Source: an uncultured Erysipelotrichaceae bacterium
GTDB lineage: Bacteria; Bacillota_I; Bacilli_A; RF39; UBA660
Direction: 5' to 3'
Assembly (NCBI GenBank): GCA_902798815.1
Contig: CADBYH010000005.1
Span: 1-63,648 of the forward strand
Length of the DNA stretch: 63,648 nt
Part shown: piece by piece, positions 31,990 through 63,648 of the stretch
Layout of the letters: each line of letters opens with the position of its first letter
Position numbering within the stretch: the first letter of the stretch is position 1
Position numbers and translations under genes: made by a program
Notes under the pieces: generated by a model
The model's input: the letters and a program-made list of their open reading frames with translations, nothing else
The model's database searches: none
What the model was told of the DNA's origin: nothing

Positions 31990-33246
31990 TTAAGATCCTA
32001 CACCATATATATCTTTAGTTAAACCAAAACTAATTCTTACATTAGAGTTTTTAGAAACAACGTCATAGTTATCTATATCTTGTCCTTCTAACCAAATATA
32101 TACTCTTACTTTTGTTATAGAATTACCCGCAAGAGTAAATAATTGATTAGACACACTATAAACTGTAGATGTTTCAGGCGACATATAAGTCCCCACAGAG
32201 TCAAGTTTTCCTGTAGGATTATCAGTAGGATTATATACAGACCCAACATAACTATTATTACCATCATATATATCAACATTATCAGAAGCAACTATTGTAT
32301 CTCTAATAACGAACGAATCCCAATTTGAAGTTGTATTAAGAATATTACAAGCATTTGTTGTATATGAACCATCTGTCGCTCTCCTTTTACAAGCAGAATT
32401 AAAATAGGTTACAATTGAAGACGTATGAACTTTCTTGTTAGGTTCCCACATATTATAGTAATATTTTCTATTATCTCTAGTACTACTACATATCTTTTTA
32501 ATATTAGTAGTTGAACTTGTTGTTGAATCACATCCTAATCCAGTTATTGTTGAAACACTTGCTCCTCTTGCTTTTGTTCCAGCAAGTAAATAAAATCCAA
32601 CACGTAGAGAGTTTGCCGCTCCATAATTTGTACTTCCATCAACGGTTGCAATAGGATTTTTCATCAAATATATATATTCTGCCGCACAATTATTAGCAGA
32701 AGCACATATATAATTATCATTACTATACTGAGTTCCTGTTCCATTACGGATAAACAAATCAAATGCAACATAACCATCTGCTTCTGAAACAAGATTCCCA
32801 TTTGTAACAGTATAATTATCAACTCGATTCGCAACTATTCTATATCCTCCAGGTGTTGCAGATAAACTTGTTTTTTCAAAAAATTTAAGTCTTCCCACAG
32901 TATCATCAATTATCCCAGGAGATGACAAAGGAACTAGTCCTGATGTTGGCCATTTATTTGTATTTCCAGAATATGCATGATCTCCACTTCCTGATGTTGA
33001 TGTTATTGTAGTTTGTGATATTGTAAGTTTATCATTTCCACTTTTCCAATGCTCTCCATCAAGTGATACTTCTAATCCTCCAGCAGAAGATACTTGAATA
33101 TCAAAATTACTTGTACTTACTGTTGATAAACCTATAAACCAAGCATATGTCTCAACAACTAAGGTAACAGCAGTTATAGCAATTACAATAAAAAGCAAAA
33201 ATATTTTTCTGACTCTGTGTTTAGAAATCTTCTTCAATTCTTTCAT
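31990..33246 (-). CDS. SipW-class exported TasA/BsaA-like fibre subunit, paralog 1 (outlier)
   Basis: TYAWF signal end; family motifs GGYR, FDLFIRN, NSLRVGF, WEPN, KVRVYIWLEGQD, FGLTKD. Confidence 0.7.
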   Translation of the reverse strand: MKELKKISKHRVRKIFLLFIVIAITAVTLVVETYAWFIGLSTVSTSNFDIQVSSAGGLEVSLDGEHWKSGNDKLTISQTTITSTSGSGDHAYSGNTNKWPTSGLVPLSSPGIIDDTVGRLKFFEKTSLSATPGGYRIVANRVDNYTVTNGNLVSEADGYVAFDLFIRNGTGTQYSNDNYICASANNCAAEYIYLMKNPIATVDGSTNYGAANSLRVGFYLLAGTKARGASVSTITGLGCDSTTSSTTNIKKICSSTRDNRKYYYNMWEPNKKVHTSSIVTYFNSACKRRATDGSYTTNACNILNTTSNWDSFVIRDTIVASDNVDIYDGNNSYVGSVYNPTDNPTGKLDSVGTYMSPETSTVYSVSNQLFTLAGNSITKVRVYIWLEGQDIDNYDVVSKNSNVRISFGLTKDIYGVGS

Positions 33247-33350
33247 ACCGCTTCTACCTTTCGTATATTTTGATATAATAATCTAATATTATTATATTAT
33301 TAATTTAAAATCAATTCAACAAAAAAAGATACTAAGTATCTTTTATAAAT

Positions 33351-33926
33351 TTAATCATCTTTTTCAGTATATTTAGAAGTATATAAATCTTTATTTTCAT
33401 CTACTTCTTCATTTACACTATTCATAATATCATCTATATTAGGAAGTTCTTCTATAGAAGCAAGTCCAAAATAATCTAAAAACTCATGAGTAGTTTCATA
33501 TAATATTGGTCTTCCAGGTAACTCACTTCTTCCACTTTCTTTAATAAATCCCTTTGCAACAAGTTTCCTAATAATAGAAGTTGAACCTACTCCTCTTATA
33601 TTATCAATTTGAACTCTTGTTATTGGTTCATTATATGCAATTATTGCTAATGTTTCTAATGCAGCTTGACTAAGAAAGTTTGTCTCTGGATTTTCTAATA
33701 ACTTTTGATAAAATTCTTTATGTTCAAATTTTGTAGTAATTTTAAATCTATTACCTAAAAAATCAATTCTAAGTCCTCGTGATTCATCCTCATAATCTTT
33801 CTTTAATTCCATAACTAGATTTTTAGCATTCTCTTCATCAGTATTTAAAACATCTTCTATTTGCTCTATTGTTAAACCATCTTCTCCAACAACAAACAAT
33901 AAACCTTCAAGTACTGCTTTAAGCAT
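33351..33926 (-). CDS. scpB: SMC-Scp complex subunit ScpB
   Basis: LSQAALETLAIIAYNEPITR, GRPILYETT. Confidence 0.95.
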   Translation of the reverse strand: MLKAVLEGLLFVVGEDGLTIEQIEDVLNTDEENAKNLVMELKKDYEDESRGLRIDFLGNRFKITTKFEHKEFYQKLLENPETNFLSQAALETLAIIAYNEPITRVQIDNIRGVGSTSIIRKLVAKGFIKESGRSELPGRPILYETTHEFLDYFGLASIEELPNIDDIMNSVNEEVDENKDLYTSKYTEKDD

Positions 33927-34641
33927 TTTTGTTCACCTCACAAATAATATCATCAAAATCATTCTCCTGTTTAATAACCAATTCCCTATTTTTTGCCATT
34001 TCTAAAATTGCTAAAAAAGTCGCAACTATATACTCTTTAGAAGCAACAGGAAATAATTCAAAGAATGATATTCTTTTTTTGCTTTTTAATAATCTTTTAA
34101 TATCAAGTCTTCTAGACGATACACTAATTTCATTAATAGTTACTTTAGTATTTAATGGTTTATTATCTGCCTTTCTTTGATAATATCTTTGTAATGCATT
34201 AACTAAATCATCAAGAGTAACATCAGCATGTATTTCATGATTTTCAGGAACATAATTATCAATTCTCTCTGGTTCCTTTGTATATATATCTTTTCTTAAT
34301 AATTCTTTATCTTGTAATAATTTAGTAATATCTTTATATGCTTGATATTCAAGAAGTCTATTTACTAATTCTTCTCTAGGATCAATTTCTTCTTCCTCTT
34401 CATCTATTTTATTATTTGGAAGTAATAATTTTGATTTAATTTCCAACAATTCTGAAGCCAAAACTAAATATTCAGAAGAAACCTCTAAATTCATTTTTTC
34501 TTGTTTATCTAAAAAACTCATATATTGTTTAGTAATTTCTTCAATTTCAATATTCATGATATCCATTTTAGCTTCTTTTATTAAATGTAAAAGCAAATCT
34601 AATGGTCCTTCAAAATCATTAATCCTAAATTCAATATCCAT
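33919..34641 (-). CDS. scpA: Segregation and condensation protein A
   Basis: FEGPLDLLLHLI, IKSKLLLP, TFLAILEM. Confidence 0.95.
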   Translation of the reverse strand: MDIEFRINDFEGPLDLLLHLIKEAKMDIMNIEIEEITKQYMSFLDKQEKMNLEVSSEYLVLASELLEIKSKLLLPNNKIDEEEEEIDPREELVNRLLEYQAYKDITKLLQDKELLRKDIYTKEPERIDNYVPENHEIHADVTLDDLVNALQRYYQRKADNKPLNTKVTINEISVSSRRLDIKRLLKSKKRISFFELFPVASKEYIVATFLAILEMAKNRELVIKQENDFDDIICEVNKNA

Positions 34642-35043: not shown

Positions 35044-35066
35044 GACTGCATAATATGCAGTCTATT

Positions 35067-36017
35067 TTAATATCCAACTAATCTAGCATGAATAACCTTT
35101 CTACCTAAATTATCATCAGTACATGTAGATAATGTAAGTATTCTTTCATTTTCATCTAAATTAATTCCAAAATCAAATTTACTTCTATTTTTTAAAGAAA
35201 CTAAAAATTCATTATACTCATCAAGACTACCAAAATTTGTCTTAAGATAATAAACTTCCGCATCACTATAATAAACAGAGAAAATTTCATAAGTATATTT
35301 ACCTGACTCTGTTAATAATATAATTCTATGACTAGAATTTCTAAACCATTTCTCAGTAAATAAATTTGATAAACTACCAAAAGCTGTTTTATTAGTTAAA
35401 TTATGTCCATAAATAATAGTATTATAATCATCAGAACTAACATTATTTCTATAATCCATAAAGATCCATCCTGATGAAGTATAATTATTATAAAAGCTAT
35501 GATTTAAATAATAATCATTATTATCTGTCTTTAATACAGGATAATTAACATTTGTACTATCAACAATAACCCAACCAACTACATTTGGATTGAGTTTTTT
35601 TAATTCTTTAAAATCAATATCTTCTATTTTATATGAAGAAAACTTTTTATATAAATTAAGTTGTTCTCCATTTGATTTTGGATTATCTTCATTTTTTTGA
35701 TTATCTGTTTTATCATCTACTTCATTAGTATCTGGAACATAAACAACTAAATCATCAGTTTTATGATAATATATTTCAAATATCATTCCACAACAAACAA
35801 TAATAATTATAACCAAAAGAACTGTAGGATTATTCTGAAGTCTTTTAAAGAAATCTCTAATTTTAATAATTATTTTATTATTAAACATTTTACTAAGAAG
35901 ATAAAATGGAAAATAAAAATAAAAGAAAAAACCTTTAGATAAAACAGTACACAAACTATAAAAACCTTTTGCTGTCGTATCAAATATAAACTTTATAAAC
36001 TTAAATACATATTTCAT
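35067..36017 (-). CDS. srtB: Class B sortase
   Basis: NYPV, DNNDYYLNH, IYGHN, TLSTC and downstream Arg. Confidence 0.88.
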   Translation of the reverse strand: MKYVFKFIKFIFDTTAKGFYSLCTVLSKGFFFYFYFPFYLLSKMFNNKIIIKIRDFFKRLQNNPTVLLVIIIIVCCGMIFEIYYHKTDDLVVYVPDTNEVDDKTDNQKNEDNPKSNGEQLNLYKKFSSYKIEDIDFKELKKLNPNVVGWVIVDSTNVNYPVLKTDNNDYYLNHSFYNNYTSSGWIFMDYRNNVSSDDYNTIIYGHNLTNKTAFGSLSNLFTEKWFRNSSHRIILLTESGKYTYEIFSVYYSDAEVYYLKTNFGSLDEYNEFLVSLKNRSKFDFGINLDENERILTLSTCTDDNLGRKVIHARLVGY

Positions 36018-40317: not shown

Positions 40318-41013
40318 CTACCTCTCTTTTTTATGATATGATTTAAAATCATAATGAACTTTTAATTCACCGCCAAGTATATTATTTGTACACTCTAAAT
40401 CATTTCCTTCAACCCACATAACTATCGTATATCTGTGTTTCTCACCTGGTGAAAAATTAGTAACCTTTTGAGTTAAAACTGTATTTTTATCTTTGAAAGC
40501 AATTGTTCCAACTTCTGGAGTACCATTAATACTCTTTTTAGCATAAACTTTTGCTTTACCATCATAATATACTTTAAATCTTATAGCATCATCAACATTC
40601 TTAACGACATCATCTATTATTAATTCATCATAATAATCAACAACATCTTCTCCCATATTTTCTATAAAGAATGTATATGCTACATAACTATCACCATTAT
40701 GACTTCCTCCAGAACCATCCAAGTTATCAGGTAACCATTTTTCAGATATATTATCAAAAAAATACAACGAATCAACTTGAATAGTACTTCGATAAACCTT
40801 ATAATCAGGATCATCATATATAACAACTTTATTTTTTAAATACAAGTTCTTATCTAGAGTTATAGAAAAGAAATAACCATTATACATAAAACTAACCACA
40901 GCATAAATTGTTAGAATTAGTAATACTAGTATAACCAACAGCAAACAGGCAATTTTAAAATTTCTTTTTCTTGCTCTCAATTTTTTTGCTGTAGTTTTTA
41001 TCTCTCCATTCAT
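40318..41013 (-). CDS. Short TasA-like family member with non-canonical signal (possible anchor)
   Basis: Basic N-terminus + TM ending IYAVV rather than TYAWF; YTFFIEN, AIRF, YTIVMWVEGND echo the family motifs. Confidence 0.55.
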   Translation of the reverse strand: MNGEIKTTAKKLRARKRNFKIACLLLVILVLLILTIYAVVSFMYNGYFFSITLDKNLYLKNKVVIYDDPDYKVYRSTIQVDSLYFFDNISEKWLPDNLDGSGGSHNGDSYVAYTFFIENMGEDVVDYYDELIIDDVVKNVDDAIRFKVYYDGKAKVYAKKSINGTPEVGTIAFKDKNTVLTQKVTNFSPGEKHRYTIVMWVEGNDLECTNNILGGELKVHYDFKSYHKKER

Positions 41014-41028
41014 ATTATACACTTCCTA

Positions 41029-42222: not shown

Positions 42223-42930
42223 CTATTTTAGAACTTTAATTATTTTTGGTTCATCTTCTTCAGTCTTTTTATCAATTAAAACTGAATAAACACTATTATT
42301 CTTTTTAACCTCCACTTTACTTAAAATAGTCGTTTTTGATTCACTAACTACATCACTAGGAATTTCAATATCTTCTGGAACATTAGCAACCTTTTTTCTT
42401 TTAAAACTTGATTTTAATAATTTAATATATGAATGATGTTCATCTTCTTTATCATCAACTATTAAACATATAACAAATAAAATTACTATTAAAGGAATCA
42501 ATACACCATTATTAAAAAGTGTATTTTTAACAATCCCTGTATTAGGAAATATCTTAATAACCTTCCCAACAATTTGATTATCATATATTGGTTCATCAGA
42601 AGTATTATTATGATCTCCTTTAGTTACATAAGTATTTGCATATTGTTGTACAACTCTATGAGTTATAAAATTACCATTTTCTTCATATGTAACAATATCA
42701 TTTAATTTAATATTCTTTGTATTTTTTACTAATATACAATCTCCAACATTAATAGTATTAGTCATACTACCTGTTTTTATCTCAAAAACAGAAAATCCAA
42801 AAAAGGATTTATATGTTTTTTTTAAAAAAGTTGTTTGTATATCTAAAAAGATATTGAAAAAAAGCAAGATGGAAACGCATACAATTGCAAAATCTAAAAT
42901 AATAGTTATAATCTTTTTAAATTTTTTCAT
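42223..42930 (-). CDS. sipW: Signal peptidase I, SipW/SEC11 (ER) type
   Basis: TGSM, VGD, ITHRV (Ser/His), TKGDHN, IVGKV; two TM. Confidence 0.88.
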   Translation of the reverse strand: MKKFKKIITIILDFAIVCVSILLFFNIFLDIQTTFLKKTYKSFFGFSVFEIKTGSMTNTINVGDCILVKNTKNIKLNDIVTYEENGNFITHRVVQQYANTYVTKGDHNNTSDEPIYDNQIVGKVIKIFPNTGIVKNTLFNNGVLIPLIVILFVICLIVDDKEDEHHSYIKLLKSSFKRKKVANVPEDIEIPSDVVSESKTTILSKVEVKKNNSVYSVLIDKKTEEDEPKIIKVLK

Positions 42931-42962
42931 CAATCCACCTTCTCACCTTGTAATATCATTAA

Positions 42963-44123
42963 CTACGAATTCTGACCATTATTCTGTACATTAGAAGTAG
43001 ATTGAACTCCAGCTTGAGAAGCATTATTAATTGGAATAGTTTGACTTATAACTGGAATATCATCAGATGGGCTAGGCACTGTATTTTGTTGTTGAACAAC
43101 ACTTGGTTGTGTTACCTGTTGAGGAGCAACTTGCTGTACTGGTTGTTGAACAACATTTGGTTGTGCTACCTGTTGAGCAACTTGCTGTACTGGTTGTTGA
43201 ACAACGTTTGGTTGTGCCACCTGTTGAGGAGCAACCTGTTGTACTGGTTGTTGAACAACATTTGGTTGTGCTACCTGTTGAGTAACTACCTGTTGTACCG
43301 GTTGTTGTACAACTGCTTGCTGTACCGGTTGCTGTGCAACTGTTGGTTGAGCAACTTGAGTTAAATTAGCATCTGCTCCCATAGGAACTTGTTGTTGAAC
43401 AATTGTAGGTTGAACCTGTAATTGTTGTACTCCTTGTGGAGACACTTGAGAAGCATCAACTGAAACTCCAACAACATTTTGATTTAATTGGGACTTCAAA
43501 TTATTAATTTCGTTCATTAATACGTTGATATTATCAACATTTTCTTTATCACTAGCAGTTCCAGTACCGACACTAGCACCCTCAAGAACAGCTTCATCAG
43601 TATCGAATTTAATTACAATAATTACAGAATAGATTTCATATAATAATAAGAAAAAGCAAGGTACGATAAAAATTACAAAGAATATCCACTTAGACTCTAC
43701 AAATGATATAATTCCACCAATAGAATCATATACTTTAATACTTTGTCCAGCTATATAATCTTGACCCCAAGAAGTATCATCAACATCTAAAGTAATATAT
43801 GGAGTTGCCTCCTCATTATTAACTTCCTTAATCGTTGAAGAAACTACTTTAACAGTCTTCTCTTGCTGACTAGTTTGATAAACAAAAATCTCATCACCAG
43901 CTTTTAGTTTGTCAATAAACCTCTTTTCAACAATTACCAACTGACCCTTTAAATACTTACTAGTATCCTCTTTGACATCAATTAAAGCCTTATTTCCAAA
44001 TTCAGTATAGCCATAATCATTACGACTTAATACCAATGTACTAGCTAAAATAATTATTGAAAGATAAGCAACAAGAATAACACCAAAAACAATATTTCGA
44101 ATTACTCTCAATACCTTCTTCAT
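42963..44123 (-). CDS. Catalytically dead SipW-like protein with Q/V/P-rich tail
   Basis: Aligns to SipW (KLKAGDEIFVY, IAGQ) but GSM absent and THR reads SST; short coiled coil then repeats. Confidence 0.65.
   Translation of the reverse strand: MKKVLRVIRNIVFGVILVAYLSIIILASTLVLSRNDYGYTEFGNKALIDVKEDTSKYLKGQLVIVEKRFIDKLKAGDEIFVYQTSQQEKTVKVVSSTIKEVNNEEATPYITLDVDDTSWGQDYIAGQSIKVYDSIGGIISFVESKWIFFVIFIVPCFFLLLYEIYSVIIVIKFDTDEAVLEGASVGTGTASDKENVDNINVLMNEINNLKSQLNQNVVGVSVDASQVSPQGVQQLQVQPTIVQQQVPMGADANLTQVAQPTVAQQPVQQAVVQQPVQQVVTQQVAQPNVVQQPVQQVAPQQVAQPNVVQQPVQQVAQQVAQPNVVQQPVQQVAPQQVTQPSVVQQQNTVPSPSDDIPVISQTIPINNASQAGVQSTSNVQNNGQNS
43087..43350. repeat. Coding tandem repeats of about 54 bp (QQPVQQVAPQQVAQPNVV)
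   Basis: Visible in DNA and protein; related repeats at about 45650-45815. Confidence 0.85.
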
Positions 44124-47750: not shown

Positions 47751-47764
47751 ATTATTTACCTATT

Positions 47765-51363: not shown

Positions 51364-51435
51364 ATACTCACATCCTCTCTCCAATTATAAAAAAATTATA
51401 CCATATTTATTTCTTTCAAATCAATAAATCAAATA

Positions 51436-52068
51436 CTATATCTGCCTAAATGTAAAACTAACATTTATATTGTAATTAACACCTTGATTATTAGCTACTT
51501 TCTCTCCTATCAATGTATCAGATGTATTTGTCGACGTACTATTATAATTATCTATCCATTGAAAATAAAATCTAAGATAAATATTAGTATGTGTTCCACT
51601 AGCAGGTAGAATTTTATTATTATTAAAAGTTTTTGAATCAGGATACAAACCTGATGAAACAAATGATACACTAGGAGTTGTAGTATTAGTTATTGTATTC
51701 GCACTAATTCTATAACCTAATACTTTTAAATTATCTATTTCACCAGTCTTTTCAACTGTAACTTCATAATTAAATGACGTTTTTATATTAGAACAATCTA
51801 TAAAAACATCAAAATAACCCTTACATCCAGGAGCAAGTTTACCAGTATTAACATTAGTACAACTATTTACCACAGGAGTAAAAGATAAATTAATCGTATT
51901 ATTAGTCGTAATATCAGTATTATTAAGTAAAATTCTCCACTTAGTCATATCTGCTCCAACTTCTCCAGAAGAACTAGAAACATATTTTGCATAACTAGAA
52001 TTAAGATTGGACAACAAAACAAAGATAGATAAAACTAGTATAAATATTTTTAGTTCAATATTCTTCAT
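51436..52068 (-). CDS. SipW-class exported TasA-like minor subunit
   Basis: SYAKY signal end, KLAPG, C-terminal F-x-Q strand. Confidence 0.65.
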   Translation of the reverse strand: MKNIELKIFILVLSIFVLLSNLNSSYAKYVSSSSGEVGADMTKWRILLNNTDITTNNTINLSFTPVVNSCTNVNTGKLAPGCKGYFDVFIDCSNIKTSFNYEVTVEKTGEIDNLKVLGYRISANTITNTTTPSVSFVSSGLYPDSKTFNNNKILPASGTHTNIYLRFYFQWIDNYNSTSTNTSDTLIGEKVANNQGVNYNINVSFTFRQI

Positions 52069-52133: not shown

Positions 52134-52949
52134 TTAATTAGATACAGATATCGCATCTTGACATGAAATACTACTATTCTTATATACACTTAAATAGTTT
52201 GATGTATATACAGGTAAATTTATAGTTTTTGTAGTTCTCAAACTATCACAAAATCTTACATTTGTATTTGCTGTAACTAATTGTATAGAACTATAATTCT
52301 CATCATAATTTGTTATAGTATATTTACAACTATTATCTCTCTCAGCAATTGTATTTATAACAACACCAGACTTAGAAGAATCAAAGGTTATATCATATAA
52401 TGTAGTAAATTCTTTTTTATATGGACTAGTTGTTGTAATATTAATTTGAACAAAAACATGCTTTTTTGTAGAAAGTTTTTTCACTTTTAAATTATGAACA
52501 TTATACCTTTTATTATATGTAATAGTACAAGTAGAAGAAGCCTCACATTGTTCTTCTGTCATATTAGCAGGTGATGTTGTAAATGATTTATTAAGAGAAA
52601 CATTTTGTACACCATCTAAAGTATCATCAATATAACATTCAAAATTATTATCAACATCATCAACTATACACTCTATATCATATGTAATATTAGTCTTACT
52701 AATTTGGAAATCACTTTCATAATTATACACTTTAAATGGAATACTATTCCCATCATAATTACTATTTGTATGTGAAAATCTCATCTCACTATCAAAATAA
52801 AATGCTGTTGAACTATAATTGTAGTTATAAGAATTACTTTTTGCAAAAAGAGCACGAGAATATTTAAAAAATATTATTATCAAACTTAAAACAAATATTG
52901 ATATAACTGATAAAAATATAGTATATTTTATATTTTTTAATAAACTCAT
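52134..52949 (-). CDS. SipW-class exported protein, Cys-containing
   Basis: SRALF signal end; AFYFDS; operon with neighbours. Confidence 0.55.
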   Translation of the reverse strand: MSLLKNIKYTIFLSVISIFVLSLIIIFFKYSRALFAKSNSYNYNYSSTAFYFDSEMRFSHTNSNYDGNSIPFKVYNYESDFQISKTNITYDIECIVDDVDNNFECYIDDTLDGVQNVSLNKSFTTSPANMTEEQCEASSTCTITYNKRYNVHNLKVKKLSTKKHVFVQINITTTSPYKKEFTTLYDITFDSSKSGVVINTIAERDNSCKYTITNYDENYSSIQLVTANTNVRFCDSLRTTKTINLPVYTSNYLSVYKNSSISCQDAISVSN

Positions 52950-52965: not shown

Positions 52966-53499
52966 TTATGTTGATTGAATAGACTCTATTCTTAAAGTAA
53001 CAGTATCTATATTATTTGAATAATTATAACCAAATACATCTCCACTTGAATTAGTAGAAGGAAAACTTACTTTTAATGTATAACTACGCGTGATATTACT
53101 TGTATAATTCATTGTAATATATGATGAAGAACATGAAATATCAACAGTTCCAGAACACGTTAACAAATTTGTAGTGTTAGAACCTAAAACAATACTATAC
53201 TGTAATGGTAATGAATAAGAATTAACGAAAAACTTATATTTTATTTTTACATCACTTCTATTACTTGCATTAGCATTAGTAACTTGAAAATTAAATTGCT
53301 TAACAGTACCCGGTTTCATATCCTTAATATCAAAACTCAATGTATCTGTTAATTGATCATTAAAAACAAACCTTGCTAAAGGAATAGATGAAACGCTTCC
53401 ATGAGTAGTACTTTTATACATAGCATAACTACCATTTATTACATAAAATAAAGAACATAAAACAATAATAAATAATAAATATCTAATTTTTCTTTTCAT
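52966..53499 (-). CDS. SipW-class exported TasA-like minor subunit
   Basis: SYAMY, DMKPG, FQVTN, terminal ESIQ. Confidence 0.65.
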   Translation of the reverse strand: MKRKIRYLLFIIVLCSLFYVINGSYAMYKSTTHGSVSSIPLARFVFNDQLTDTLSFDIKDMKPGTVKQFNFQVTNANASNRSDVKIKYKFFVNSYSLPLQYSIVLGSNTTNLLTCSGTVDISCSSSYITMNYTSNITRSYTLKVSFPSTNSSGDVFGYNYSNNIDTVTLRIESIQST

Positions 53500-53513: not shown

Positions 53514-56500
53514 TTATTTTACAATAATATTATAATTCTCTTCAGCAAGTCTTCCAGAATTAGTTTCTAAGAAAAACTTTATATTATATGATCCAGGACT
53601 AATATTACTCTTTAAATTTAAATCTGTATAATAATTTACATTTTGTGAACCAGTAATTGTTTTAAAAGAATAATAATTACCACTTATATTAGTAAAACTA
53701 TTAGTAAATAATTGACTAGGTGCCACACTTTGAGTTGATGTTTGACTAACAAGCTTATTAACAATCATAGAAATTTTCTTACTCGAAAAACTTCCCTTGT
53801 ATTTATAATTTAATCTAATTCTGCTATTATTTAAAGATGTTTTTCCAGTACTACCATTAATAATTCGATCTCCATCAGCAATACTTGTACTAAACCCAAT
53901 ACCATTAATACCATTACAATAATTATTTGTGACTGTTACTGTATCAGTTGCTAATACAGTTCCTGCATAATTACAAACTTTAAAAACTAAATTGTAATCA
54001 CCATTTAAACAATCAATAAAATAACTATAAATATATTGATCTAATTCTATAGAATCATTTGCTCTATATTGAGATCCATAATTATAAAAATATGGCTTAT
54101 AAACTATATTTACTTTATTATTACTATTAAAAGAATAATCATCTTCATAACCATTATTATTATCATAAAATAGTTCAAACTTACCATGAAATAACTGTGA
54201 TAGATTTTCATTGTTTGGGCCAAGTAATTCTACTTTTAATATATAATCATTATTGCCAATATCAGGACCATATTTTTGCTTAACATTACCATATGAACTA
54301 TAGGATTTAGCAGTTTTCTCAAAAACTACATCGAAATAAAAATGTGCATAGTTATCAGGCCCAACTAAAGAAATAGAATCACCATCATCCTCTTCACTTA
54401 CATCAAGATTATAACTTATATGTGAAAAACTATTATACACGCTATATGCAAAGTAAGAAGCACCTTCATATTCAGAAACACCACTAGCAACAGCAACAAG
54501 TTCAGGTTCAATATATATAGGAAAATCATCATCATCAACATCAGAAAAATCAAAAGAAATTTTATAATTTTCATTTAATACACCATTACTATGATGACTA
54601 GAAACTTTATTATCATAAGCAGTATTATTAACAATAGATCTAAAATTAGCTAAATTATATACATAATATGTATCATCATCACTATTAGTATTAGCTGTTG
54701 GTGTAGAATTGACTGTATACATATAAGTTTGATCATAAAAATCATCATAAAGTACTATTTTTGTATCAATAGGTAATGGTTCTTCATATATATATAGATT
54801 TGTTCTTGCAGAAGTAGAATACCAACTAGAATAAATACTTACATCCATTTGATGAGTACAATTAAAATTTAAAACTGAATCCTTAGTAACTTGTTGTCCA
54901 TCATAAAAATCAAGTGGATAATCATTTATTCCTTCAGTAAAACTTGTTTCATATCCATCATAAACAATTAAATCAGAATTCGCATACGTAACATTTCCAT
55001 AAACATCAGTTGCTTTAACAAATATCGTTTTACAATCATTTAATTCTATATTAAGATTCGAACCATCATAAAATGAATATTGAAAAGTATTATAACCACT
55101 ATATGAATTTGAAAATCCATCTCTTATATAATACTCAATTTTTGCCAAATCTTTGTTATCATTTGCATTTATTATAACAGCGGTATCTGATGTAAGTCTA
55201 ACTCTTGAAATTGAATTTAATCCAGTCCAAGAATTTGAACCAATAACAATTGAAACAGTTGGAGAAGTATAATCATCATAATATAATACAGGTGGAAGTG
55301 AAGTCCTATATGTCCAGACATATCCATTTTGAACAGTTCCCCCTGAACCATATTTGTCAAAACCCATTGTAGATTGTATATGAGTCTGTGAAGTAAGAGT
55401 TGAATATGATACAGATGATATTCCTGCACTAGAAGCATTAGAATTACTTATATTCCCTATAGGATTACCACTACCACTAGTATAATAAATCTTAGTCCCA
55501 TTAAAAAACTGAGAAAAAGTATAACTAGATAATAATTTTACATAACCAGCTATTCTTCCACTAAAAGCACTAGTATTTTTCTGTAAATCAAAACACTTTG
55601 ATATATATAACCTATTAGCACCTTGTCTAATAAAACCAAATAATCCTCCAGAATATCTCGGACAACGTATTTCTGCATAATTATATGATAAAGTAAACTC
55701 CTTTAGTGAACAATAAGTACTTAATGAACCTACCAAACCTCCTGCATTATCAGTTGAGATAATAGTTGCTAAATTATATATTCTTCTTATAACACATACC
55801 ATACTATCAGGACAAGTGTTACCTAATATTAAACCAATAGACACCCTACCAAATACACCACCAACTGAATTATCACCAACTATTTTTCCCCTAATTACAA
55901 TATTTTCAATAGTACCACAATTTTCAAAACATCCAATAAATCCTGTTTTATCCTCATGAGAATACTCTTTATATGACAAATTTGTAAATGTAACATTACT
56001 TGAAACAGGTGTAACAGTAATGGTACTAACATGATTAGATAATTCAATTGAAAAAGCACCTGAACTATATGTATTACCACCATATTTGAATGATGCACTA
56101 GCAGTACCACTTACAACATATTTATAATATGGTTCCTCAGCATAAACAGGATTACTACCACCATTCAGATTAATTACATTTTGCGAAGGTGAAGAAGCAG
56201 ATCCATTGTAAGTATAATCAACATTTTGATTCTTAATAAAACCCGAAAAAACAATATCTTTAACTGTATTACCAGTTGCAGTACTAGTATATGAATAACC
56301 AACAACACCTAAATAAGATGCACATCCAGAAATATAAGTATTCAAAAATCTAACATTTTGTACTGTTGCATCCTGAATTATTTTAAAAAAACCATATTCA
56401 TCATAGTATGTGTTACTATAATAAAATAAACCATTAATAGTTTTTCCATTACCATTAAAATTACCAGTAAAAGTAAAATCAGTCCTTGGTAATTGATTTA

Positions 56501-56924
56501 TAGTTCCCACAGGATTATTATTCAAAATATCCTGCACAGAGTTATAATATTTATCACCAGATATAAGATATTCTTGATTATCTTTATAATACTTGGGATT
56601 ATTTTCATCTTCATAATCAAAATAACCCTCATTTAAATAAATATCAGCAGTAAGTTTATAATACTTTGATCTATAATACGAAGATGAATTACATCTATTA
56701 ATAAAAAGTTTTAAATCTGCACCATTTGAAATCAAATATGGAGAAGAACTAGTTCCACTACCAGAAAGAGTAGAAGATACAGAAGAACCATCCCAATAAT
56801 CAGTATTATCATTATTAGAAAGATATCTTGCATATGAAACCTTAAAAAGCATAATAGTACCTAAAACACCTATTATGCCAAAAATAACTAAATTAAAAAT
56901 TGTTATTTTCTTTAAGTTTTTCAT
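53514..56924 (-). CDS. Large SipW-class exported protein with GLUG-type repeats (tip adhesin candidate)
   Basis: SYARY; GSGTSSSPYLI, YKLTADI, FTGNFNGNGKTI, VGGVFG/AGGLVG/SGGLFG; beta-rich C-terminal domains; no wall anchor. Confidence 0.7.
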   Translation of the reverse strand: MKNLKKITIFNLVIFGIIGVLGTIMLFKVSYARYLSNNDNTDYWDGSSVSSTLSGSGTSSSPYLISNGADLKLFINRCNSSSYYRSKYYKLTADIYLNEGYFDYEDENNPKYYKDNQEYLISGDKYYNSVQDILNNNPVGTINQLPRTDFTFTGNFNGNGKTINGLFYYSNTYYDEYGFFKIIQDATVQNVRFLNTYISGCASYLGVVGYSYTSTATGNTVKDIVFSGFIKNQNVDYTYNGSASSPSQNVINLNGGSNPVYAEEPYYKYVVSGTASASFKYGGNTYSSGAFSIELSNHVSTITVTPVSSNVTFTNLSYKEYSHEDKTGFIGCFENCGTIENIVIRGKIVGDNSVGGVFGRVSIGLILGNTCPDSMVCVIRRIYNLATIISTDNAGGLVGSLSTYCSLKEFTLSYNYAEIRCPRYSGGLFGFIRQGANRLYISKCFDLQKNTSAFSGRIAGYVKLLSSYTFSQFFNGTKIYYTSGSGNPIGNISNSNASSAGISSVSYSTLTSQTHIQSTMGFDKYGSGGTVQNGYVWTYRTSLPPVLYYDDYTSPTVSIVIGSNSWTGLNSISRVRLTSDTAVIINANDNKDLAKIEYYIRDGFSNSYSGYNTFQYSFYDGSNLNIELNDCKTIFVKATDVYGNVTYANSDLIVYDGYETSFTEGINDYPLDFYDGQQVTKDSVLNFNCTHQMDVSIYSSWYSTSARTNLYIYEEPLPIDTKIVLYDDFYDQTYMYTVNSTPTANTNSDDDTYYVYNLANFRSIVNNTAYDNKVSSHHSNGVLNENYKISFDFSDVDDDDFPIYIEPELVAVASGVSEYEGASYFAYSVYNSFSHISYNLDVSEEDDGDSISLVGPDNYAHFYFDVVFEKTAKSYSSYGNVKQKYGPDIGNNDYILKVELLGPNNENLSQLFHGKFELFYDNNNGYEDDYSFNSNNKVNIVYKPYFYNYGSQYRANDSIELDQYIYSYFIDCLNGDYNLVFKVCNYAGTVLATDTVTVTNNYCNGINGIGFSTSIADGDRIINGSTGKTSLNNSRIRLNYKYKGSFSSKKISMIVNKLVSQTSTQSVAPSQLFTNSFTNISGNYYSFKTITGSQNVNYYTDLNLKSNISPGSYNIKFFLETNSGRLAEENYNIIVK

Positions 56925-56939: not shown

Positions 56940-58553
56940 TTAATCTTTTACCTCTTCATCCTTCATCTTTTTTATATTAATTAAAAAACTAATTTCATCA
57001 ATTGTATGTTGAAACTTTGATATTTTCATTTTATTTTTTAACTTCTCATAATTAGAAAAAACTAATTGCTGATTATCCTCTTCAAAAGTAGTCTCATTAA
57101 CATTTAAATTATCAAATCTATATGCATCCATTAATCTTAACTCAAAATTTTCATTTGAAAAAATAGATTTCATATCAATCAACTTTCTATTTCTATTATA
57201 CAAAAGATCATATATTTCATTATATTTATCAGTAACCTCTGTTGCATTCTCATATTCAAAAACACTTTTAATTATTGATCTTGAAAAATACGGATAAAAT
57301 ACAATCAATTCAATAATAGAAGATATAAATGAATTTGGCTGTATTTTTTGTTTTAATTTTAAATTATAATACATTTTATTACGTTCTAAATATTCTGAAT
57401 AAATTTCTGTTAAATTCTTTTGTTGCTCTATTATGCTGTTAATATCAACAGTAGTTAAACTATTTTCAATATTATCAAGAGTTAATATTTTATTAATAAA
57501 CCCTTTTTTTACCTTAGAATTCATCTTACTTATTTTTTTATCATGTGCTTTAAAATCCTTAATCATTTGTTTCTCATCTAAAGAAGAAATATTCTTGTTA
57601 AATGTATTCTTAATATTTTCAAATAAAGGATCATTCACACTATAACATTGATATTCTAGTAAATTATTATAAAATGTATCAATCCTATTTACTGTCTGAT
57701 TTAAGATATTAATATCTTCAGTATTAATTGGTTTAATCAAAAAGTAATCTAATTCTCCATATAAGTTATTCATTGTATTTTCATATACTCCAAAATCAAG
57801 ATTACCATCCATAAAATCAGTTATGATATCAGCTTCATCTTTATCTTCAACCTTTTCTTTTTCAGCTTCTACCTCAAACAATCTCTCTAATACTTTATCT
57901 CTATTTTCAAAACCATTCTCATTTAATACTTTCTTTTCATAAGAACTAATAAATGATTTGAATTTTTTAATATTTTTATCAATTAATATCTTAATACTTA
58001 CAATAATATTTTCATACATTTTTGGACATTTCCAAAATAATTTTTTCAAAATTTCTATATCTATTTCTTTACCATTAAATAACTCAAATAAATTTAACAT
58101 ATAATTATATGTAAATACATTTATTTTAAAATCATCTGCAGATATCTTAATACCCGCAATCGTAAATTTAGAAATAATTTTCCTTATTATTTCGTTATTT
58201 TCTTGTAAAGAATAATCATAATAGTGTTCTAATTCAAACAATAACATATCAAAACCTAGTTTTTCATAAAAACCGGTAGTTGGATTAGTAAGATTTATAA
58301 TTTCTTTTAATCCAACTATTTGATCATTATAACTATTTATTGTTGGAATTTTATCAATTCTATGTGGACGTAATTTTTCATATTTATAATCAATAAATGT
58401 CCTAGTACTATCAATTAAAGATTGATACGTATCTACTATTCCATCTATTGTATCTTTATACTTTTTAACTCTAGCTTCAGTATTCATTGGCAATAAATCC
58501 AATAATACCTTTTTCTCTTCAATATCTTTATCTATATACTCTTTAAAATTCAT
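56940..58553 (-). CDS. Hypothetical cytoplasmic helical protein
   Basis: 537-aa ORF, no signal or TM, RBS GAGGAG. Confidence 0.75.
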   Translation of the reverse strand: MNFKEYIDKDIEEKKVLLDLLPMNTEARVKKYKDTIDGIVDTYQSLIDSTRTFIDYKYEKLRPHRIDKIPTINSYNDQIVGLKEIINLTNPTTGFYEKLGFDMLLFELEHYYDYSLQENNEIIRKIISKFTIAGIKISADDFKINVFTYNYMLNLFELFNGKEIDIEILKKLFWKCPKMYENIIVSIKILIDKNIKKFKSFISSYEKKVLNENGFENRDKVLERLFEVEAEKEKVEDKDEADIITDFMDGNLDFGVYENTMNNLYGELDYFLIKPINTEDINILNQTVNRIDTFYNNLLEYQCYSVNDPLFENIKNTFNKNISSLDEKQMIKDFKAHDKKISKMNSKVKKGFINKILTLDNIENSLTTVDINSIIEQQKNLTEIYSEYLERNKMYYNLKLKQKIQPNSFISSIIELIVFYPYFSRSIIKSVFEYENATEVTDKYNEIYDLLYNRNRKLIDMKSIFSNENFELRLMDAYRFDNLNVNETTFEEDNQQLVFSNYEKLKNKMKISKFQHTIDEISFLINIKKMKDEEVKD

Positions 58554-58718: not shown

Positions 58719-58732
58719 TACGAATCACATCC

Positions 58733-59795: not shown

Positions 59796-61172
59796 TTATT
59801 CTCCGGATGATGCTGATTCTTCAGCTGATGATTCTGGAGCAACCTCATATCTATCTTTAGTCAATCCAAAATTAAATTTTAAAGTTTGATATTCTGTTGC
59901 TAAATCAAAGTTGTCAACATCTTGTCCTTCCAAATATATATATACTCTTATTTTAGTGATACTAGATGGTGCGATAAATAGTAATGGATTTCTTGTAGCT
60001 TCACTACTATTTTCAGTATCAGTTAATGTTGGTACATATGTCATTTTTGGATTTGTATAACCATTTAATCCATCATATATATTAGAAATTGGTGTATCAG
60101 ATGATAAAATCGTATTACTAATTGTATAAGTCTTAATATACTTATTGTCAGCAAGTGCTTCATTTTCAGAAGTTCCTGCTGCTAAACAATTGTTGTTAGC
60201 TTCGTTTAATAAGAATGCTCCTGCTGCAGTTCTCTTTATACATGCATTATTAAATCTTGTAACAGCCTTTGCAATATGAGCTTTATCATTTGGTTCCCAT
60301 ATATTCCAGTTGTATCCACGAGGTACAGCTGTTGGAGTTCCACTTCCTTCAGTCTTATTACATAAAGAAGTTACATCTCCTGTTCCACCACAGTTAATTC
60401 CTTGAATAGTAGCCTTTGCAATTCCACGAGAATTAACTCTTCCTAATGCATAAAATCCAACACGCACAGAATTTTGTATTCCATTACCAACGCTAGATCC
60501 TGATGTATCATATGTTACTGTTGAAGTACCAGTTAAGAAAATCGCTTCATCATCATCTTTGTTATATGCAGCAGTATAAGAAGATCCAGATGCGTTCTTT
60601 ATAAATACATCAAATGCAATATAACCAGTAGCACTTGCAGAAGTAATATCTCCAGCTGCCAATCTATATCCTCCAGCTTCTGATGTCAATGTAGTTTTAG
60701 AATAAAACTTTGCTTGTGAATTAGTACCATCTAATTGTGCAGAAGATGATACAGGTTCCAATCCTTTGTGATTATCATCCTCTCCAGCAGTTGCCCAGTG
60801 ATTAACATTTCCATTTGCTGCTGGATATGCACTATTAGCAGGAGTTTCAGTATCTATTAATTTAATATTATCTGCTGTACTTCCGTTTATAACCATTGGT
60901 TCAGCACCTTCAATAATACCCTTTGTTATATGTAATTGAGTTTCCCAATGATCTCCATCTAGTGATAAGGACAAACCTTCAGTAGTAACTATATTTACTT
61001 CAAATGAATCAACTGATACTGTTGTAATACCTATAAACCATGCATAAGTTGCAACAACAAGTACTATTGCAGTTAATCCAATCGCAATTATTGTCTTTTT
61101 ACTTCTAGTAATTGCTCTCTTTCTATTCTTTTTATTAACTCTCTTTACTGTAATTTTTGTTTCGTTATTCAT
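59796..61172 (-). CDS. SipW-class exported fibre subunit, paralog 5
   Basis: TYAWFIG and all family motifs; S/A/E tail like paralog 2. Confidence 0.7.
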   Translation of the reverse strand: MNNETKITVKRVNKKNRKRAITRSKKTIIAIGLTAIVLVVATYAWFIGITTVSVDSFEVNIVTTEGLSLSLDGDHWETQLHITKGIIEGAEPMVINGSTADNIKLIDTETPANSAYPAANGNVNHWATAGEDDNHKGLEPVSSSAQLDGTNSQAKFYSKTTLTSEAGGYRLAAGDITSASATGYIAFDVFIKNASGSSYTAAYNKDDDEAIFLTGTSTVTYDTSGSSVGNGIQNSVRVGFYALGRVNSRGIAKATIQGINCGGTGDVTSLCNKTEGSGTPTAVPRGYNWNIWEPNDKAHIAKAVTRFNNACIKRTAAGAFLLNEANNNCLAAGTSENEALADNKYIKTYTISNTILSSDTPISNIYDGLNGYTNPKMTYVPTLTDTENSSEATRNPLLFIAPSSITKIRVYIYLEGQDVDNFDLATEYQTLKFNFGLTKDRYEVAPESSAEESASSGE

Positions 61173-61209
61173 TTTTACACCACCTTAATCAATATGAACA
61201 ATCAAATTA

Positions 61210-62385
61210 TTATGTATTAACATTATATTTATCTTTAGTAAATCCAAATTTTACTCTAATGGATTTTCCTTTAGAAACTAAATCATAATTATCTACATCC
61301 TGCCCTTCCAAATATATATATACTCTAACCTTTGTTATACTATTTGCAGCTAATTTAAAAAACTCAGGCCTAGCATTTCCACTTGTATTCTTCTCTGTAT
61401 CTGTAAAATAATCCATTTCTTGCAAGTAAGTAGATGATGAAGTATAAGTATTGAAATCTGCTCCATCATATACATTTACATTATTAGAAGCGGTTATAGC
61501 CTTTTTAACAGCATACGTATGAACATATGCATTATTAGCCACCGTTCCACAACTTCCACTATATGTATTAGCAGCAGTCCTTGCCTTACATACATTACCA
61601 TAATAAGTTATTAAATTAGTATCATGTGCTTTATCATTTGGTTCCCATATAACAGTACCAACGCTACTGCATAGACCTGTTACCGGAGATTGAGTACTAC
61701 AAGTAATCCCCTTAGCAACAGACGCAGAAGAATTATACTTAACTCTACCTATTTGTGCAAATGCAACTCTTACAGAATTCTGAAGACCTTTAGCATTCGT
61801 TGGATCACCAGTTCCAGAGGGGCTAACAGTAACAGAAGAAGCAGTACTCAAATAAACAGCTTCATCCGCATTAGCATCATAACCAGAAGCATAAGCATCC
61901 TTTTTACCATTTCTAATATATAGATTAAAAGCAATATATCCATCTTGCTCTGTAGAAGAAGAGTTTTCTATCTGAGAAGAAATAAGTCTATAACCTCCGC
62001 CAGTAGCTGCCAAAGAACCTTTACCATACAATTTTAAAACATTCTGTGAAGTATTGATCTCTCCTATAGTTGAAATAGGAACAAGCCCTTCTCCTGTAGT
62101 AGTAGATACCCATTTATTATTATTACCAGTAGCAGCTTCAACAGCGCTTTTAGTAACAGACAAGGTTGTAGAAGTCCAAGTTGAAGCATCAAGAGACAAT
62201 TCCAAACCTTCACCACCAGAAATAGCAATATCAAACTGATCAACAGACACAGTTGAGATTCCTACAAACCAGGCATATGTCTCATATACCAAAACGATAC
62301 CAGTGATAGCAATTATTATTATAAAAATGTATATTTTCCTAATTCTTCTCTTTTGTTTTATCTCCTCAATAGAAGAACTATTCAC
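61210..62385 (-). CDS. SipW-class exported fibre subunit, paralog 6
   Basis: TYAWFVG and all family motifs; GTG start. Confidence 0.7.
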   Translation of the reverse strand: MNSSSIEEIKQKRRIRKIYIFIIIIAITGIVLVYETYAWFVGISTVSVDQFDIAISGGEGLELSLDASTWTSTTLSVTKSAVEAATGNNNKWVSTTTGEGLVPISTIGEINTSQNVLKLYGKGSLAATGGGYRLISSQIENSSSTEQDGYIAFNLYIRNGKKDAYASGYDANADEAVYLSTASSVTVSPSGTGDPTNAKGLQNSVRVAFAQIGRVKYNSSASVAKGITCSTQSPVTGLCSSVGTVIWEPNDKAHDTNLITYYGNVCKARTAANTYSGSCGTVANNAYVHTYAVKKAITASNNVNVYDGADFNTYTSSSTYLQEMDYFTDTEKNTSGNARPEFFKLAANSITKVRVYIYLEGQDVDNYDLVSKGKSIRVKFGFTKDKYNVNT

Positions 62386-62559
62386 CTCATCTCACCACCA
62401 TTCGTACCGCCTTGTATTCTCTATCATGTAAAATTATACATACTACCATTAAAATTATATCAATTTTTTTTTCCATTTTCAAGATATATTATAAAGTTAT
62501 TTAGTTTACAAATAAGTGTAAATTCAAATAAAAAAACCAACTCGTTTTTAAGTCGGTTT

Positions 62560-63648
62560 TTATGAACCTACACCATATACATCTTTAGTTAATCCAAAAC
62601 TAATTCTTACATTAGAGTTTTTAGATATTACATCATAGTTATCTATATCTTGTCCTTCTAACCATATATATACCCTTACTTTTGTTATAGAATTACCCGC
62701 AAGCGTAAACAAACTATTACCAGTTCCATAAGTTGTAGAATTATCAGGCGATTTATAAGTAGTAATAGTATTAAGGAATTTATCGTCTGTTGATCCTGAT
62801 GTTGCTGTATAACTATTAACACCACTACCATCATATATATCAACATTATCAGATGCAGTTATTGTATTCTTTATAAAATACGTGACCTTGTTCGTTGTTG
62901 TAGTAATCGCTGTACATGCTGTTGTCGTATATGCACCTGTAGAATCTCTTTTTTTACAAGCATTATTAAAATATGATACAGCCCCATCTGTATGTACATT
63001 ATGATTTGGTTCCCACACATTCCAATAATATTTTTGAGCTGATATCGAACAAATTTTATATATATTTGTCGAAGAAGAAGTGGTTGAATTACACCCTAAT
63101 CCTGTAACAGTTGAAACACTTGCTCCTCTTGCTTTAACACCTGCTAGTGGATAAAAACCTACTCTAAGTGAGTTTGCCGCTCCATAATTTGTACTTCCAT
63201 CTACGGTTGCAGTTGGATTTTTCATCAAATATATATATTCTGCTGCACAATTATTAGCATTGGTACATGTATAATTATTATTACTATATTGAGTACCTGT
63301 TCCATTACGAATAAATAAATCAAAGGCCACATATCCTTCCGCTTCTGAAACATAAGTTGTTGGATTAGTAGAAGCAACACTATAATTATCAACTCTATTC
63401 GCAACTATTCTATATCCTCCAGGTGTTGCAGATAAACTTGTTTTTTCAAAAAATTTAAGTCTTCCCACAGTAGTATCAATTGTTCCGGGAGATGACAATG
63501 GAACTAGCCCTGATGTTGGCCATTTATTTGTATTTCCTACATATGCATGATCTCCACTTCCTGATGTTGATGTTATTGTAGTTTGTGATATTGTAAGTTT
63601 ATCATTTCCACTTTTCCAATGTTCTCCATCAAGCGATACTTCTAATCC
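62560..63648 (-). CDS. SipW-class exported fibre subunit, paralog 7, 5' end beyond window; near-duplicate of 31990-33246
   Basis: Frame open to the window edge; 63391-63648 matches 32821-33078 with 13 mismatches in 258 nt. Confidence 0.75.
   Translation of the reverse strand, partial: GLEVSLDGEHWKSGNDKLTISQTTITSTSGSGDHAYVGNTNKWPTSGLVPLSSPGTIDTTVGRLKFFEKTSLSATPGGYRIVANRVDNYSVASTNPTTYVSEAEGYVAFDLFIRNGTGTQYSNNNYTCTNANNCAAEYIYLMKNPTATVDGSTNYGAANSLRVGFYPLAGVKARGASVSTVTGLGCNSTTSSSTNIYKICSISAQKYYWNVWEPNHNVHTDGAVSYFNNACKKRDSTGAYTTTACTAITTTTNKVTYFIKNTITASDNVDIYDGSGVNSYTATSGSTDDKFLNTITTYKSPDNSTTYGTGNSLFTLAGNSITKVRVYIWLEGQDIDNYDVISKNSNVRISFGLTKDVYGVGS

Follow-up and report, generated by a model that had tools for sequence, protein, structure and literature searches.

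Within contig CADBYH010000005.1 of an uncultured Erysipelotrichaceae bacterium, seven paralogous genes predicted to encode exported proteins lie between positions 31990 and 63648. We analyzed these genes, designated P1 to P7 in coordinate order and here called the P family, together with their surroundings. The window is this whole contig (63,648 nt), contig C5 of a 52-contig, 1.45-Mb genome bin (G000) that is 75.7% complete; its GC content ranges from 0.21 to 0.35, and nearly all of its genes are on the minus strand. A sequence-only reading of the window had proposed that the seven genes encode putative fibre subunits, specifically a larger, disulfide-bearing pilin of the TasA superfamily expanded for heteropolymer building or antigenic variety.

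All seven open reading frames (ORFs) are present on the minus strand at the positions given in that reading, and all are paralogous, matching a profile built from 53 family members with E values from 1e-158 to 5.5e-73. P1 (31990-33246; 418 aa) is a stand-alone copy with six cysteines and a recent duplicate of P7 and of a copy on contig C29. P2 (38930-40309; 459 aa) lies downstream of a gene encoding a 234-aa protein and has positional orthologs in two other loci (L006 and L012). P3 (41029-42204; 391 aa), the protein that we modeled, has a signal helix at residues 2-35, a predicted cleavage site after A32, and an N-terminal strand at residues 42-51. P4 (58733-59767; 344 aa) is divergent, has one cysteine pair, and falls in a distinct conserved clade whose position is fixed. 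P5 (59796-61172; 458 aa) combines a long variable insert with an acidic S-rich tail, and P6 (61210-62385; 391 aa) has a promoter-like site upstream. In P7 (62560-63648), 362 aa are seen; the N-terminus is cut off at 63648, the end of the contig that makes up the window.

Based on a MAFFT alignment of the seven paralogs, identity to P1 is 34% for P2, 52% for P3, 25% for P4, 40% for P5, 42% for P6, and 78% for P7, and 27 columns are invariant. The shared motifs listed in the sequence-only reading are present, and P4 has them in part, as that reading noted; it lacks GGYR, WEPN, and IYDG. The paired cysteines were also borne out: the mature proteins contain 6, 4, 4, 2, 4, 4, and 6 cysteines from P1 to P7, the members of a pair are always 5-18 residues apart, and four mature cysteines occur in 45 of the 53 family members. 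Serine, threonine, and asparagine together make up 0.27-0.35 of mature residues, compared with a mean of 0.188 (standard deviation 0.036) in 27 other window proteins, in agreement with the variable S/T/N-rich segments described from the sequence. Insertions in the 53-sequence alignment are concentrated in three loops, and conservation, measured as majority fraction, is 0.64 in predicted strands versus 0.52 in coil. Among the paralogs, the first 29 aa of the mature N-terminus (45%) and the last 48 aa (53%) are better conserved than the middle (34%). Separately, the part of the P5 insert at 60759-60905 shows dense differences in contigs of at least three other ruminant runs.

Full-length members begin with a basic start and a hydrophobic helix that ends in T-Y-A-W-F. 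At the cleavage site, all 53 sequences have A32 and W33, and nearly all have T30, Y31, and F34; the form TYA|WF occurs in 48 of 53 P family sequences, compared with TYA|LF in 31 of 40 proteins of the PF12389 (TasA/CalY) family. According to one study, an aromatic residue at the P2' position is the stated reason that TasA needs its own archaeal-type peptidase, SipW (PMC10269814). We used hhalign to align the P family with the PF12389 alignment; this comparison matched 34 columns over the signal (Prob 83.6%, E 8.2e-6). Shorter homologs of the family, described below, matched PF12389 over 53 columns (Prob 75.5%, E 2.4e-5), a stretch that continues for ~29 residues beyond the point of cleavage. 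A search of the first 70 residues of 12 cluster proteins against NCBIfam at E ≤ 10 returned no SipW-signal model. Taken together, these sequence comparisons support assigning the P signal peptide to the SipW/TasA class. As the sequence-only reading stated, the proteins have no wall anchor: LPXT[GAN] is absent from all seven paralogs, and no C-terminal hydrophobic tail was found in their translations. The hydrophobic helix precedes T-Y-A-W-F in the paralogs, an arrangement that is not that of a class III signal, in which a short leader is cut off ahead of the hydrophobic helix (G|F..xE). Sortase pilins and type IV pilins were therefore excluded as candidates by the missing LPXTG-type signal with membrane anchor and the missing class III signal, respectively. 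A class B sortase gene (35067-36017, minus strand; TIGR03064, 185 bits) does lie between P1 and the main cluster, with no evident substrate among the paralogs.

Two genes of the cluster, both on the minus strand, are predicted to encode SipW-type (archaeal/ER-type) signal peptidases I. Their products match TIGR02228 at 70.5 bits (42223-42933) and 89.2 bits (45626-46537; a Q-rich tail follows), with a cut-off of 51.85, and both retain the catalytic Ser and His. The genome contains five intact SipW-type peptidase genes. It also encodes three signal-peptidase-like paralogs in which the catalytic Ser and His are replaced (29360-29905, 42963-44123, and 49321-51384, all on the minus strand), and these inactive paralogs keep the fold and both membrane segments. 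The product of 49321-51384 (687 aa) has a long C-terminal domain of 500 aa, and its equivalent elsewhere is a SipW-type ORF of ~680-840 aa. Long Q/P/V-rich low-complexity tails of the V-Q-Q-P-V-Q-Q or A-P-V-V-E-A-P-V kind are present on the products of 42963-44123 and 45626-46537 as well as on an unrelated membrane protein (22792-23901, minus strand); these tails may serve as linkers that span the wall or lie in the cytoplasm. Of 250 sampled genomes of the class, mostly 0.6-2 Mb in size, 21 had a family match (E ≤ 1e-10), and 20 of these were also SipW-positive, versus 129 of 250 overall; this co-occurrence is no more than a consistency check, because related genomes are not independent.

The remaining genes between P3 and P4 are likewise on the minus strand. 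A 441-aa protein (44273-45598) has a T-L-A-W-F signal and a C-terminal DUF6273 domain. Between the two SipW-type genes there is also a pair (46503-49324) consisting of a syntenically conserved DUF2357 gene (46503-47750) and its partner (47765-49324), which encodes a 519-aa McrB-family AAA+ protein; the McrB AAA+ domain was matched in the PDB (E 7e-6), in NCBIfam (E 5.7e-7), and by the PADLOC candidate PDC-M26A (E 6.2e-30), and, as read from the sequence, the first ~80 residues are hydrophobic. Next come genes for secreted proteins of 210 aa (51436-52068; S-Y-A-K-Y signal) and 271 aa (52134-52949; S-R-A-L-F signal), and for a 177-aa protein (52966-53499) that is a remote relative of the camelysin/TasA family, aligning with PF12389 at Prob 93.9% with its signal and 18% without it. 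A 1136-aa secreted protein (53514-56924; S-Y-A-R-Y signal) is a candidate adhesin or tip, and it shares the S-Y-A-x-Y signal variant with the 177-aa and 210-aa proteins. The last gene before P4 encodes a 537-aa protein with no signal peptide (56940-58553), which had no match in Pfam, NCBIfam, or ESM Atlas searches.

An exhaustive search for relatives of the P family identified 2,797 representatives at 50% identity with E ≤ 1e-3, 986 with E ≤ 1e-10, and 374 with E ≤ 1e-30. A word-indexed search identified 898 relatives, and the few named ones are called "hypothetical protein." Pfam and NCBIfam models matched none of the paralogs, Pfam did not match the P domain of 49 relatives, and none of the 10 family clusters that we looked up carries a name. 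Some relatives have C-terminal DUF6273, Flg_new_2 (InlB-type B-repeats), or glycine-rich domains; adhesive fibre subunits often carry such C-terminal domains. In the ESM Atlas, thirty look-alike clusters are unnamed and the nearest named one is PF12389 (0.86; 164 shared features), a proximity that serves only as a lead and could derive from the signal peptide. Sequence searches of the PDB with three family profiles gave chance-level matches only (E ≥ 0.11), and this type of search is insensitive because the PF12389 alignment itself fails to retrieve TasA. We found no description of the family in the literature covered, which did not extend to the family-member lists that accompany the BsaA and AbpX preprints; those lists might include it. 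The nearest named public records with relatives are bins labeled uncultured Erysipelotrichaceae, Bacilli, Mollicutes, or Tenericutes, and the P family is an undescribed family that is abundant in uncultured small-genome gut and rumen Bacilli/Mollicutes. DNA nearly identical to the window occurs in 18 runs from up to 12 studies, labeled mostly as bovine, goat, or sheep gut, counting the runs that contain at least half of the sampled words. None of the matching runs listed was an RNA dataset; two labeled metatranscriptomic are marked "probably DNA."

To describe gene order, we used 66 related loci with fetched flanks of 8 kb, many of which ended at contig ends. These loci contain one to seven family copies, with three copies in 30 loci. 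The gene for the 234-aa relative was found in 50 of the 66 loci, and the gene that follows it is a P gene in 48 of these 50. Among 47 P4-type genes, 46 are preceded by a P gene and 41 are followed by the 537-aa gene, which in turn precedes the 1136-aa gene in 19 of 48 cases (10 others are at a locus edge). In a family tree of 206 sequences, the P4-type genes form one clade of 47 leaves with support of 1.0, 89% of which are followed by the 537-aa gene. From these gene predictions, the cluster has a conserved order: the 234-aa relative, P genes, a P4-type gene, the gene for the 537-aa protein (predicted to be cytoplasmic), and the gene for the 1136-aa secreted protein. The proposal of heteropolymer building is favored by these conserved subunit types in a fixed gene order.

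A compact version of the cluster is present in locus L072 (a genome of the same class), where one protein is named as Acholeplasma hippikon by NCBI/UniRef; the UniRef name of the Acholeplasma homolog is "SipW-cognate class signal peptide." This locus begins with a 226-aa gene resembling the 234-aa gene, followed by two P-like genes (306 and 320 aa), a SipW gene, a McrB-like gene, a DUF2357-like gene, and a second SipW gene, with the McrB-like and DUF2357-like pair thus placed between SipW genes as in the window (5570-9011 of L072). Small proteins with A-W-L or A-W-F signals and then a third SipW gene make up the remainder. A 186-aa ORF in this locus resembles an ORF in a different genome (G072, locus L001) that matches PF12389 at E 8.4e-7. 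Across 47 such short forms (~320 aa), alignment with the long family covered 260 columns and extended over the full mature protein (Prob 98.2%, E 6e-14), with Prob 99.1% when the first 76 columns were compared, and mature cysteines are absent in 32 of the 47. Because these homologs align over their full length and are mostly cysteine-free, the region of the cysteine pairs, which includes the W-E-P-N motif, is an insert of the long forms. The description of a larger, disulfide-bearing subunit therefore holds for the size and for a cysteine-pair insert that may form disulfides.

The 234-aa protein (40318-41022, minus strand) is an eighth, remote relative of the family core inside the interval, with an N-terminal membrane helix and no T-Y-A-W-F site. 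Its alignment with the short forms spans 135 columns (Prob 94.6%, E 6.6e-8), and its direct alignment with the long family is weak (E 1.8e-4). In its predicted structure (mean predicted local distance difference test score, pLDDT, 84.7), Foldseek ranked AbpA (7ueg) and the TasA fibre (8aur) third and fourth (E 1.3e-3, prob 0.97-0.98), behind a PA14-like insert and a carbohydrate-binding module (CBM). The structural scan, which was independent of Foldseek and covered 48,161 PDB chains, gave Z 6.5 for the TasA fibre 8aur, tied with two unrelated sandwiches, and 5.9 for AbpA 7ueg. We infer that this protein is a candidate membrane-anchored base or nucleator.

The AlphaFold2 model of P3, built from the 53-row family alignment, has a pLDDT of 89.0 and a predicted template modeling score of 0.86, and it consists of a helix at residues 2-35, a weak linker, a strand at residues 42-51, and a mostly beta domain. 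The top three of the scanned chains were the archaeal Saci_0406 thread (7pnb; Z 5.8, 140 residues aligned, root-mean-square deviation 4.4), the TasA fibre (8aur; Z 4.8), and cannulae (9h8b; Z 4.8), all to be read against the structural tool's own yardstick, by which a best Z of 7-8 is usual for models without a true match. Lower-ranked neighbors included a CanA-like tube (Z 4.3), AbpA 7ueg (Z 4.0), and many chaperone-usher pilins. Self-complemented FimA aligned from residue 37-38 of the P3 model, thereby including strand 42-51, and the fibre form of TasA and the thread aligned from residue 53 only. Judged by alignment ranges alone, this is the pattern expected if strand 42-51 were a donor-type strand folded back in the monomer model. 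The sequence-only reading had named a fold unrelated to TasA and self-complete as the outcome that would speak against it; the P3 monomer is self-complete, and its best neighbors are nonetheless TasA-superfamily fibres, at weak Z values.

The paralogy of the seven genes, their signal class, the peptidase genes, the conserved cluster, and the subunit classes are established here, and the fold class is indicated at weak scores. The explanation that we prefer, at about even chances, is that the P proteins are SipW-cleaved, TasA-like, enlarged subunits joined head to tail by donor strands into a fibre of multiple subunit classes; the cleavage, disulfides, polymerization, and roles of the parts in this explanation are ones that we infer. 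The P precursors (~400 aa) would be exported via the TasA-class signal peptide and cut after T-Y-A (A32) by the neighboring SipW-type peptidases, which would free an N-terminus, W-F-I-G...F-x-I-x-V, able to form an amphipathic beta-strand. The mature protein would be a beta-sandwich of the TasA/donor-strand-pilin type with a large insert, probably two disulfides, and S/T/N-rich variable loops. Each subunit would give its N-terminal strand to the next, producing a head-to-tail surface filament of several subunit types, with ordinary P proteins as the shaft and the P4-type as a specialized subunit. The 234-aa relative, which lacks the cleavage motif, may act as a membrane base or nucleator in a role comparable to that of TapA, and the 1136-aa and small camelysin-like proteins may be tip or minor parts.

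Several results weigh against this explanation. All Z values for the P3 model are below 6, the alignments cover ~140 of ~355 mature residues (~40%), and glycosidase beta-sandwich domains score about as well as fibres. The Foldseek comparison with TasA, CalY, and AbpA that the sequence-only reading suggested did not bear it out for the P model: no match was found at E ≤ 0.001 in the PDB, where TasA 5of1 ranked 26 (E 0.83), or in the viral database BFVD. The AlphaFold2 monomer is complete with its own N-terminal strand. By hhalign, the mature domains align with PF12389 at Prob 0.2-0.5%, and because they have no profile similarity to PF12389, the sequence link is limited to the signal and ~29 residues. 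Pfam PF12389 matched none of the paralogs (E ≤ 0.01) and nothing else in the genome; this missing match excludes the Pfam family but not the wider superfamily, whose archaeal members also lack PF12389. SipW-type genes were found in the 8-kb flanks of only 13 of the 66 loci, though contig ends truncate many of these loci. The genome, at 75.7% completeness, yielded no DsbA-like or VKOR gene, and disulfides in a gut anaerobe are an assumption for that reason.

Comparison with described systems places the P system closest to TasA/CalY of Bacillus, with SipW and TapA. The two share the signal class (T-Y-A with an aromatic P2'), a co-encoded archaeal-type peptidase, a beta-sandwich core after an N-terminal strand (predicted, at weak scores, for the P protein), and an operon that also encodes an accessory relative, which is TapA in Bacillus and the 234-aa protein in the P cluster; the facts on TasA and TapA used in this comparison, including the TapA role, are from PMC9674648. 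Unlike TasA, the P protein is about twice the size, has a large insert with two conserved cysteine pairs, and has a mature domain with no PF12389 match. In addition, the P cluster contains many ordered paralogs versus one major subunit in the TasA system, and its further components are the inactive peptidase paralogs, the McrB-like AAA+ protein with its membrane segment, and the 537-aa cytoplasmic protein.

BsaA and BsaB of Clostridium perfringens are likewise remote TasA relatives in a multi-gene SipW operon, and the several paralogs per operon are described there as possible heteropolymers (PMC11580942). The BsaA donor strand is locked by an Asn-Lys isopeptide bond, whereas none of the invariant residues in the P N-terminal strand is Asn, Asp, or Lys. 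The same source ties BsaA secretion to type IV pilus genes and reports that BsaC secretion depends on a type IV pilin (PMC11580942). The window holds a ComGC-like type IV pilin gene (19627-20190, minus strand; N_methyl PF07963) ~12 kb outside the cluster, the sole PF07963 match, and it may be relevant because of this dependence of BsaC.

The archaeal Saci_0406 thread, AbpA, cannulae CanA, and AbpX resemble the P system as the best structural neighbors of our models. These fibres are built by donor-strand complementation, and a signal peptidase I together with accessory, minor, and tip subunits is often encoded at their loci (PMC9715654 for the thread; AbpX preprint 10.64898/2026.01.04.697558). 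The differences are the weak Z values, the lack of sequence similarity, and the much smaller archaeal subunits. The AbpX-type peptidase has ten membrane helices according to the preprint (10.64898/2026.01.04.697558), whereas the window peptidases are predicted to be of the two-helix SipW kind. Chaperone-usher pilins (FimA, CfaB, CooA) are similar at Z 4.1-5.3, and it is with self-complemented FimA that the alignment includes the N-terminal strand. The chaperone-usher system is Gram-negative and relies on a periplasmic chaperone and an outer-membrane usher; the likeness is one of fold and principle, not of membership. The P system probably works like the TasA superfamily, as a distant member of it, and we do not file the P family in PF12389 because the PF12389 sequence test fails. 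What sets the P system apart from every TasA-type system described is the size of its subunits, their cysteine pairs, how many subunit classes there are and in what order, the inactive peptidases, and the membrane AAA+ pair.

The strongest alternative, which we regard as possible yet unlikely, is that the P proteins are exported but do not polymerize, acting as variable surface-coat or adhesin proteins that are held otherwise or by an uncleaved signal anchor, with the copies serving surface diversity. Such proteins would be like the variable surface protein families of Mollicutes-related bacteria, and the self-complete AlphaFold2 monomer, the variable S/T/N-rich loops, and the fusion of relatives to binding-type domains all fit this alternative. 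So does the copy number: genome-wide, there are ~11 family copies in ~1.5 Mb, versus one to four matches in 11 of the 27 genomes that belong to the host's own taxonomic family. Beyond the window, these copies include two fused forms of ~640 aa (contigs C1 and C22), one on C4, and a partial copy at the start of C29, and family fragments occur on C3 and C20, the latter with a stop. The end of the window and the start of C29 break at the same position of the family alignment (57), and C3 ends in an N-terminal fragment. The 5' parts of these copies are nearly identical (dS, synonymous divergence, 0-0.10, versus 0.8-1.3 in the middle) and, judged from these values, are homogenized or very recent. 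With the shared break position, this near-identity means that the assembly broke in a repeat, and the copy number is therefore a floor. Stand-alone copies are also flanked by promoter-like and terminator-like sites, all of which are consensus matches only. In the window, terminator-like hairpins follow P2 (38895-38917) and P7 (62532-62561), and the best promoter-like site of the scan (62454-62482; 11/12, with a TG extension) is upstream of P6.

Selection between copies does not fit this non-polymerizing alternative. The tree shows P1/P7/C29 and P2/C4 as recent duplicates, and P2, P3, and P6 have positional orthologs in other bins. For the recent duplicates, the ratio of nonsynonymous to synonymous divergence (dN/dS) is 0.33 overall and at most 0.66 in the highest 50-codon window; no positive selection was found between them by this measure. 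Because dN/dS is below 1 throughout, the suggestion of antigenic variety in the sequence-only reading gains no support from diversification. The non-polymerizing alternative is further opposed by the invariant cleavage-site motif, by the ordered subunit types and membrane-anchored relative kept across many genomes, by the better conservation of the termini than of the middle, and by donor-strand fibres being the best structural neighbors.

A more elaborate possibility, which we consider doubtful, is a novel type of filament machine, as opposed to self-assembly of the TasA kind, with the AAA+ protein in the central role: the membrane-anchored McrB-family GTPase, the DUF2357 protein, and the dead peptidases would hold N-terminal strands, either uncleaved or just cleaved, and drive ordered, energy-dependent assembly or retraction of a heteropolymer whose subunits are large, disulfide-locked, and TasA-like. 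A membrane-anchored base protein would carry the growing fibre, in walled and wall-less cells alike. The placement of the McrB-like and DUF2357 pair between two SipW genes is kept from Acholeplasma to this rumen bacterium. The McrB-like gene is within the flanks of 9 of the 66 loci and has a SipW-type neighbor in all nine. The PADLOC match could indicate an embedded McrBC-like defense pair (candidate PDC-M26A); we do not take the pair as defense, given that it has a membrane segment and that it lies between SipW genes in 9/9 loci that contain it.

It is improbable that the P proteins are instead secreted carbohydrate-binding or enzyme-accessory beta-sandwiches acting on rumen glycans of plant or host origin. 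Structural comparison gives this idea some footing, with glycosidase beta-sandwich domains and CBM/PA14-like modules reaching scores as high as those of the fibres: the P model aligns with 8k2h at Z 4.1-4.6 and with sialidase N-domains at Z 3.5-3.9, and the 234-aa model matches 3ac0 (E 3.6e-4), 8zqf (E 4.8e-4), and 8k2h (Z 6.9). The charged residues that are invariant in the family (R197, E249, H255, K351, R353, E359, D362, and D364) could form a sugar or calcium site, and the near-identical DNA comes from runs labeled as ruminant gut. However, no gene of the cluster has a glycoside-hydrolase or CBM match in Pfam, the cluster is centered on signal peptidases and TasA-class signals, and the system is present in Acholeplasma too. 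Least probable of all is a role on the spore surface, as appendage or coat proteins produced while spores form. Although P2 is directly upstream of a SigF-like sigma gene and spoVAC/AD/AE, with the same adjacency in locus L009, a terminator-like hairpin separates P2 from the sigma gene, sigma matches occur in 2 of 66 loci and spoVA in 1 of 66, and a homologous cluster is found in a genome whose protein is named Acholeplasma hippikon, a member of a non-spore-forming genus.

Bacillus biofilms have TasA-type fibres as their principal protein scaffold, and donor-strand relatives of these fibres are emerging across bacteria and archaea. To our knowledge, the characterized TasA-type subunits are all small (~150-260 aa), and their assembly is thought to be energy-independent. 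If the preferred explanation of a donor-strand fibre is true, the P family adds a double-sized, cysteine-paired subunit type and fixed subunit classes in a conserved gene order, along with a possible membrane-anchored base, inactive peptidase paralogs, and an AAA+ protein. The host lineages are gut and rumen Bacilli/Mollicutes with small genomes, uncultured and with a very little-studied cell surface, and the system can be tested directly because culturable Acholeplasma carries a short, cysteine-free form within the corresponding cluster.

Two further observations concern neighboring genes. At least nine further ORFs of the genome match the DUF6273-bearing 441-aa protein (contigs C1, C4, C9, C10, C11, C15, C16, and C40), and DUF6273 appears in the literature in connection with phage receptor-binding proteins and targets of diversity-generating retroelements. 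The genes next to P2 (36375-38903, minus strand) encode a SigF-like sigma factor, which scores below the equivalog cut-off, and spoVAC, spoVAD, and spoVAE; sporulation genes are retained in this reduced ~1.5-Mb lineage.

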